Positions 17,014-17,202 of a stretch of 64,000 nucleotides of DNA are shown here, in pieces; positions within the stretch are counted from its first letter, which is position 1; each line of letters begins with the position of its first letter. Under the pieces are notes generated by a model that was not told the DNA's origin, searched no databases, and saw nothing but the letters and a program-made list of their open reading frames with translations. The translations under genes and the position numbers were made by a program. This stretch comes from Mytilus trossulus (Eukaryota): positions 27,404,001 to 27,468,000 of the forward strand of contig NC_086383.1 in NCBI RefSeq assembly GCF_036588685.1, written 5' to 3'.

Positions 17014-17202
17014 ATGAAGTCCATCTATTGTCTATATGCCATCATGCTAGCAGTTGCTACAATTTCAGAAGTTTACAGTGGAAAGTGTGAATTTATGTGT
17101 TTACGGAAAGCGATCAGATGTAAACGACAAAAGAAAGATTATTGCTGCGAAGAGTTTAAAAAGTGTGGACTAGAAAAATGTGGAGAGCCAGACTTAAGGT
17201 AA
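17014..17202 (+). CDS. Secreted cationic cysteine-rich peptide precursor, 62 aa (candidate defence peptide)
   Basis: The ATG at 17014 directly follows a polypyrimidine tract and CAG acceptor (ttttcctttttcag|ATG). Translation: MKSIYCLYAIMLAVATISEVYS-GKCEFMCLRKAIRCKRQKKDYCCEEFKKCGLEKCGEPDLR*. The first ~22 aa look like a signal peptide. The 40-aa mature part has 7 Cys and net charge about +5. The longer ORF-track entry (16810) starts in a SINE-like repeat. A possible donor AAG|GTAACA overlaps the stop, so the 3' end could differ. Confidence 0.7.
   Translation: MKSIYCLYAIMLAVATISEVYSGKCEFMCLRKAIRCKRQKKDYCCEEFKKCGLEKCGEPDLR

Follow-up and report, generated by a model that had tools for sequence, protein, structure and literature searches.

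A spliced mussel gene with the sequence traits of the oyster GSWN neuropeptide precursor family

The window analysed here is a stretch of 64,000 nucleotides from the mussel Mytilus trossulus (C11:27404001-27468000 in a 1.3-Gb genome), and positions below are counted from its first letter. The open frame at 17014-17202 (+) translates into 62 amino acids followed by a stop; it is real, but it is only the first coding exon of a spliced gene, the parts of which are as follows:

16998..17013, + strand: splice acceptor (pyrimidine tract and AG) abutting the ATG, from sequence and contigs
17014..17198, + strand: first coding exon, 185 nt, with the predicted signal peptide and Cys1-Cys7, ending in phase 2
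17014..17079, + strand: predicted signal peptide, residues 1-22, from hydropathy, with probable cleavage after Ser22 or Gly23
17080..19240, + strand: eight-cysteine domain, residues 23-65, split by the intron, C-x3-C-x6-C-x7-CC-x5-C-x4-C-x6-C
17199..19230, + strand: intron, 2032 nt, GT..AG, from contig joints
19231..19327, + strand: second coding exon with Cys8, KR, GSWN, KR, acidic tail and stop
19241-19246, + strand: first KR
19247-19258, + strand: GSWN
19259-19264, + strand: second KR
19265-19324, + strand: acidic tail, 20 aa, net charge -7

The ATG stands directly after the pyrimidine tract and AG and hence opens an exon; the contigs of runs X1, X3 and X4 begin to match at 17012, with about 50-180 further letters upstream that have no placement, and a non-coding exon upstream of 16998..17013 is implied. 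Four public runs, three presumed to be RNA and one of unknown kind, were compared with 12000-20500. The joint 17196->19229 (cut +2, GT..AG) is present in the contigs of three of them (X3, X4 and X22), bearing out an earlier sequence-only reading, in which the donor at 17198/17199 was suggested to lead to an extra exon; the contig of the fourth, X1, spans 17012-17198 and has too few letters past 17198 for any joint to be listed. The spliced frame is open and encodes 93 amino acids, 31 residues more than the 62-residue frame, and the 3' UTR extends to at least 19440 (+). A protein search returned VDI76185.1, a hypothetical protein of Mytilus galloprovincialis (UniRef A0A8B6HAG2) that is identical across all 62 first-exon residues and whose residues past 62 are encoded here from 19232 on; over the full length 92 of the 93 residues agree, the one difference being an E/D change at residue 86, and the record carries no functional name. 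Further, the contigs differ at up to 10 positions, and all five substitutions of the first coding exon, among those listed, are synonymous, as against 19% expected per random change. No intron-less copy of the gene was found in the genome by protein and DNA searches.

Within the intron, at 17283..17372 (+), the 3' half of the first coding exon recurs as a decayed tandem copy that is frameshifted and has lost the donor (82% over 55 nt; local score 74, where 200 shuffles reached 36 at most); this copy stops where a multi-copy repeat starts (~17356; 44 genome matches for the DNA query). Contigs of three runs also match 12000-12220 at about 90% identity. Elsewhere in the window, 56157-56564 (+) is a C1q-domain exon (PF00386, E 2e-18). 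Two related Gly/Asp-rich frames, 23169-23687 (-) and 38388-38939 (-), have a common GWGWGWGPNPY motif and no Pfam match, the latter with many CC pairs; an exon at 28606-28872 (-), upstream of the former on the same strand, gives a partial PH-domain match (E 5e-4, below the curated cut-off), and the two frames are possibly the last exons of duplicated PH-domain genes.

The sequence-only reading had taken the 62-codon frame as a secreted, Lys/Arg-rich peptide with seven cysteines. Its N-terminus is indeed hydrophobic (9-residue hydropathy up to 2.6), and the stretch at residues 4-18 aligns with similar stretches in the orthologues, consistent with a signal peptide; the end at 17202, in contrast, gives way to the splice to 19231 and the longer product. 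The spacing C-x3-C-x6-C-x7-CC-x5-C-x4-C proposed for 17014-17202 is confirmed in the translation, and a relaxed version of it has a single match in a six-frame translation of the window. To these seven the second coding exon adds an eighth cysteine (codon 19232-19234); the count is thus even, and the covalent dimer that an odd count had suggested is no longer needed. The 40-residue segment counted earlier has 12 K/R against 7 D/E, but the full domain of residues 23-65 has 12 against 9, so that it is only mildly cationic with a net charge of +3. The Mytilus domain ends C-E-D-KR with no Gly preceding the first KR; hence, amidation is not expected here.

A profile search of 1.84 billion representative proteins returned six matches at E<=0.001, namely the scallop protein OWF54888.1, the oyster proteins K1QS26 and A0A8W8NVG9, the record P0012 and two altered near-relatives, P0009 and P0010; a further search added a member from the periwinkle Littorina saxatilis. 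K1QS26 has a profile E of 4.8e-06 among those 1.84 billion proteins and a pairwise identity of 36% over 69 aa (E 4e-13), and a relative at 76% identity from sequence records closely resembles the Bathymodiolus platifrons entry in the accessible part of PMC6425005 supplement file 2. Alignment A4 holds the six full-length non-redundant members, fragments, near-duplicates and altered copies having been left out. All six have the eight cysteines and the string KRGSWNKR, and the net charge of their Cys domains runs +3, +2, +6, +1, -3 and +3. Gly before the first KR is found in just two of the six (oyster and Littorina); since the scallop member lacks it, although the accessible text of PMC8398477 counts scallop in the family, this Gly, and with it the potential amidation of the Cys peptide, appears to be a variable trait of the family.

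Other records depart from the family pattern. In the ENA records P0009, P0015 and P0016, Cys1 and Cys4 are both lost, which are not partners in the disulfide register proposed below, a point against that register, and in P0010 the CC pair is lost; in these four, relatives carry the first coding exon in altered form, likely as decaying duplicates. P0012 (a JGI/IMG record) belongs to the family, but in place of the short acidic tail it has one of 99 residues in which basic sites of the (L/V)DRR type recur. A scan of metagenome contigs gave 62 pattern matches, none of them confirmed as family. Within the mussel genome, one copy was found at a meaningful score, the present locus, with four protein queries, the exon DNA and the pattern KR-GSW(N/D)-KR; the best candidates were scored, so a very divergent paralogue could escape. 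Five weak genome matches (L002, L003, L006, L025 and L026) were set aside as paralogues, scoring no higher than 5.7 bits with the family profile and having no Cys frame.

With alignment A4, AlphaFold predicts two helices and no strand, the first running to residue 38 and the second, after a loop of five residues, from 44 to 56; the model is a modest one (pLDDT 72-81 over residues 31-60, mean 59.5, pTM 0.40), and five near-identical rows gave a poor one (pLDDT 45.7). The prediction thus points to a single helical hairpin, in agreement with the disulfide-stapled hairpin first proposed from the cysteine spacing. Reasoning from the spacing 25-29-36 against 44-51-56, and not from model coordinates, we suggest that disulfides C25-C56, C29-C51 and C36-C44 would staple an antiparallel hairpin and that C45-C63 would secure the tail. 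Fold searches with the A4-based model neither showed nor excluded a relative: the best Foldseek E was 5.0, and VIA-align (best Z 6.0) gave generic helical hairpins only, its aligned range including the signal helix. Pfam gave no family at E<=10 for the 62-residue frame, for eight proteins or for the six members of A4, and a search of the PDB by sequence gave a single chance-level match (E 0.3) and none using A4.

The family has a name. Cragi-GSWN (LOC105336174) is a mollusc-specific precursor from the visceral ganglia of the oyster Magallana/Crassostrea gigas, named in 2021 by Realis-Doyelle et al. (PMC8398477, in its accessible text, as for all that follows from it). The last 16 residues of K1QS26 equal the Cragi-GSWN peptide in Supplementary Table 2 of that paper, and on this ground we read the present gene as the Mytilus orthologue of Cragi-GSWN, one more member of a molluscan family of neuropeptide precursors that has a name but no assigned function. 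According to the paper, whose description fits, the precursor contains Cys-rich peptides together with a short one, GSWN, and a C-terminal one of 16 residues that mass spectrometry detected; of the two mass-spectrometry rows given for the precursor, the second is a shorter form of the same C-terminal peptide, and neither GSWN itself nor the Cys peptides are among them. The family traits given are strictly conserved cysteine positions and a potentially amidated Cys peptide; homologues are reported from C. virginica, scallop, Lottia and Aplysia, Mytilus not being among the species named in that text. The oyster transcript shows weak ganglion expression, higher at the spawning stage. Our literature searches found no receptor or activity for the GSWN family and no Mytilus peptides with a C-C-C-CC-C-C-C framework, and GSWN is absent from the accessible scallop neuropeptidome supplements (PMC5996578).

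The reach of this family appears to be wider still. Five precursors filed among the achatins in the accessible part of PMC6425005 supplement file 3 have, by eye, the eight-Cys frame: Octopus bimaculoides Ocbimv22007633, O. vulgaris 23029, Idiosepius 193607, Neomenia 21030 and Gymnomenia 57797, and the same five appear in the PMC8557429 supplement, likewise seen in part. As given there, the three cephalopod entries have exactly the Cys spacing of Mytilus, whereas the solenogaster entries have a loop of 12-13 residues; all share GSWN between dibasic sites, but with 4-7 tetrapeptide copies (GSWN, GSWD, GAWN) as against the one in Mytilus, and with Cys3 not directly followed by a dibasic pair. When the A4 members are added, three positions other than the cysteines are invariant in 11 of 11 sequences: the residue after Cys2 is Leu or Met, the second after Cys3 is Arg and the third after CC is Phe or Tyr, i.e., Leu/Met30, Arg38 and Phe/Tyr48 in Mytilus numbering. 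No literature linking the oyster family to these cephalopod and solenogaster entries was found, figures and most subscription papers lying outside the search, and GSWN, GSWD and GAWN as whole words yielded little further on-topic literature among the matches listed. Judging from these entries, the family seems older and broader than described in 2021, and the figures of PMC8398477 may already show some of the relatives.

Hence, we propose that Cragi-GSWN very probably has its Mytilus orthologue in the 93-residue precursor. Cleavage at both Lys-Arg pairs would likely yield three products, namely the eight-cysteine peptide, the tetrapeptide GSWN and the acidic tail, and these would likely serve as nerve or hormone signals. 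Briefly, we envisage the following course. The precursor would enter the secretory pathway of neurons, where prohormone convertases, by cutting at both KR sites, would set these three products free. GSWN would be the likeliest receptor ligand, probably for a GPCR, because it is invariant in all six A4 members and multiplied 4-7 times in cephalopods and solenogasters, as is usual for the active peptide of a neuropeptide precursor. The Cys domain would stay one chain, a helical hairpin with four disulfides, and, being conserved in its own right, might be a co-released second hormone or a folding and sorting domain. At the second KR, cleavage is shown in oyster by the detection of the tail peptide by mass spectrometry (PMC8398477), and the oyster expression, on which this point turns, suggests a role near spawning.

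Within the same family, cleavage at the Lys-Arg that follows Cys3 might instead split the Cys region into two chains, of three and five cysteines, joined by disulfides, with an insulin-like two-chain hormone as the main product. A dibasic pair does follow Cys3 in all six A4 members, i.e., those of the bivalve/gastropod type, the oyster paper marks two Cys-rich peptides split at KRR (PMC8398477), and the site falls, in the predicted structure, at the end of helix 1 adjoining the loop. In the five cephalopod and solenogaster entries, however, the accessible supplement has VR or AR at this point (one has RK shifted by one place) and only the Arg is invariant; further, a disulfide beside the site may hinder access of the convertase. 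Cleavage after Cys3 is thus possible in bivalves and gastropods but, on these entries, not conserved in cephalopods, and we consider a two-chain main product unlikely, if worth keeping in mind.

More improbable to us is that GSWN belongs to the achatins proper and acts through their receptor, its Ser2 perhaps being in the D form. Octopus cardioactive peptides Ocp-3 and Ocp-4 are the L- and D-Ser forms of GSWD, although no confirmation of their sequences was found in the literature. The Mytilus precursor shares with the achatin precursors (GFAD/GFGD/GFWD repeats) an unamidated G-x-x-D/N tetrapeptide between KR sites, and, in the accessible sources, its relatives are placed among achatin precursors (PMC6425005 file 3), while a Todarodes squid precursor with GSWN/GSWD repeats is called achatin-related (PMC10172372). 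Achatins, however, have an aromatic residue 2 and no eight-Cys domain, unlike the mussel gene with its single GSWN, Ser at 2 and eight cysteines. Moreover, this genome has a separate achatin-type gene without such a Cys frame at C2:34613548-34616570 (~34.6 Mb, + strand), with a signal-like N-terminus and GFWD, GYGD and GFGN between basic sites; likewise, Octopus bimaculoides, Idiosepius and Gymnomenia list separate achatin entries with GFGD/GYGD in the accessible part of PMC6425005 supplement file 3. The achatin receptor, as far as the accessible text of PMC10089201 goes, responds to the D form only, and in that of PMC11277431 peptide analogues carrying Ser2 were not converted by the Aplysia isomerase in vitro.

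Going beyond the orthology with Cragi-GSWN, which we continue to prefer as the reading of the locus, we tentatively advance a broader view that may well need revision: the oyster GSWN family and the achatin-filed cephalopod and solenogaster precursors might be one ancient mollusc-wide gene distinct from achatin, pairing a G-(S/A)-W-(N/D) tetrapeptide, octopus cardioactive GSWD included, with an unrecognised four-disulfide helical-hairpin hormone. The invariant Leu/Met30, Arg38 and Phe/Tyr48 would then mark its receptor-binding face, and two orphan signalling systems would be fed by one gene. The comparative gain is modest: a bivalve/gastropod family of 2021 would reach cephalopods and solenogasters, there listed among achatins. 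On the practical side, a defined tetrapeptide and a disulfide peptide of 42-43 residues are cheap candidates for receptor de-orphaning and, given the higher level of the oyster transcript at the spawning stage, for the control of spawning in mussel farming. Further, an unannotated Mytilus protein gains a name, and what looked like a lead to a new antimicrobial or toxin family in mussels proves a false one.

That lead had arisen from the sequence-only reading, which took the peptide as a candidate new family of this kind unless it matched one already described; it matches Cragi-GSWN, its mature part is conserved across mollusc classes and its positive charge is not. Mytilins and myticins carry an acidic C-terminal extension, a layout shared with the GSWN precursor. 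A secreted antimicrobial or toxin-like peptide with such an anionic propiece accords with the signal, the mildly cationic Cys-rich domain and the tail of net -7, and an ESM Atlas feature search ranked spider lycotoxin clusters first (scores 0.76-0.77), but it is very improbable, for shuffled proteins exceed those scores a third of the time and the structure rows fall below the naming bar (the ranking being treated as noise), the gene was found in one copy with KR-GSWN-KR invariant and conservation from solenogasters to cephalopods, the Cys-domain charge ranges from -3 to +6, and the oyster orthologue is a ganglion transcript in the accessible text of PMC8398477.

The comparison with known systems is in keeping with this. 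Mytilins, myticins, defensins, mytimycins and MgCRP-I likewise have small secreted Cys-rich precursors. The CS-alpha-beta peptides among them (defensin, mytilin, myticin) have a C-terminal CxC and fold as a helix with a two-stranded sheet, whereas the spacing of the GSWN gene has no CxC, as the sequence-only reading had already observed, the model is all-helical and no Pfam family is hit at E<=10. MgCRP-I, as described in the accessible text of PMC4558851, has six cysteines, C(X3-6)C(X1-7)CC(X3-4)C(X3-5)C, after an N-terminal pro-region of about 15 residues ending in KR, and mussel defence peptides are described there as hypervariable, multigenic and confined to Mytilida. In contrast, the GSWN gene departs from the MgCRP-I features with eight cysteines, three of them before the CC, and no N-terminal pro-region; it was found as a single copy, is conserved far outside Mytilida and has no C-C-CC-C-C array. 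A single gene that is strongly conserved, but not in its positive charge, is thus a poor fit to the mussel defence peptides. Two looser resemblances, supported by no search, may be mentioned: the spacing of the hairpin, C-x3-C-x6-C / C-x6-C-x3-C, is like that in nemertean neurotoxin B-IV, and the precursor as a whole is laid out like opioid precursors. It is with Cragi-GSWN that the agreement is closest: both precursors have a signal-like N-terminus, eight cysteines, a dibasic pair after Cys3, a single KR-GSWN-KR and a C-terminal tail ending P-Y-(Y/F). They differ in the spacing (3,6,7,0,5,3,6 in oyster against 3,6,7,0,5,4,6 in Mytilus, the change falling between Cys6 and Cys7), in the Gly before the first KR, present in oyster and absent in Mytilus, and in the tail, which has 16 residues and a net charge of -2 in oyster and is longer and more acidic in Mytilus (20 residues, net -7).
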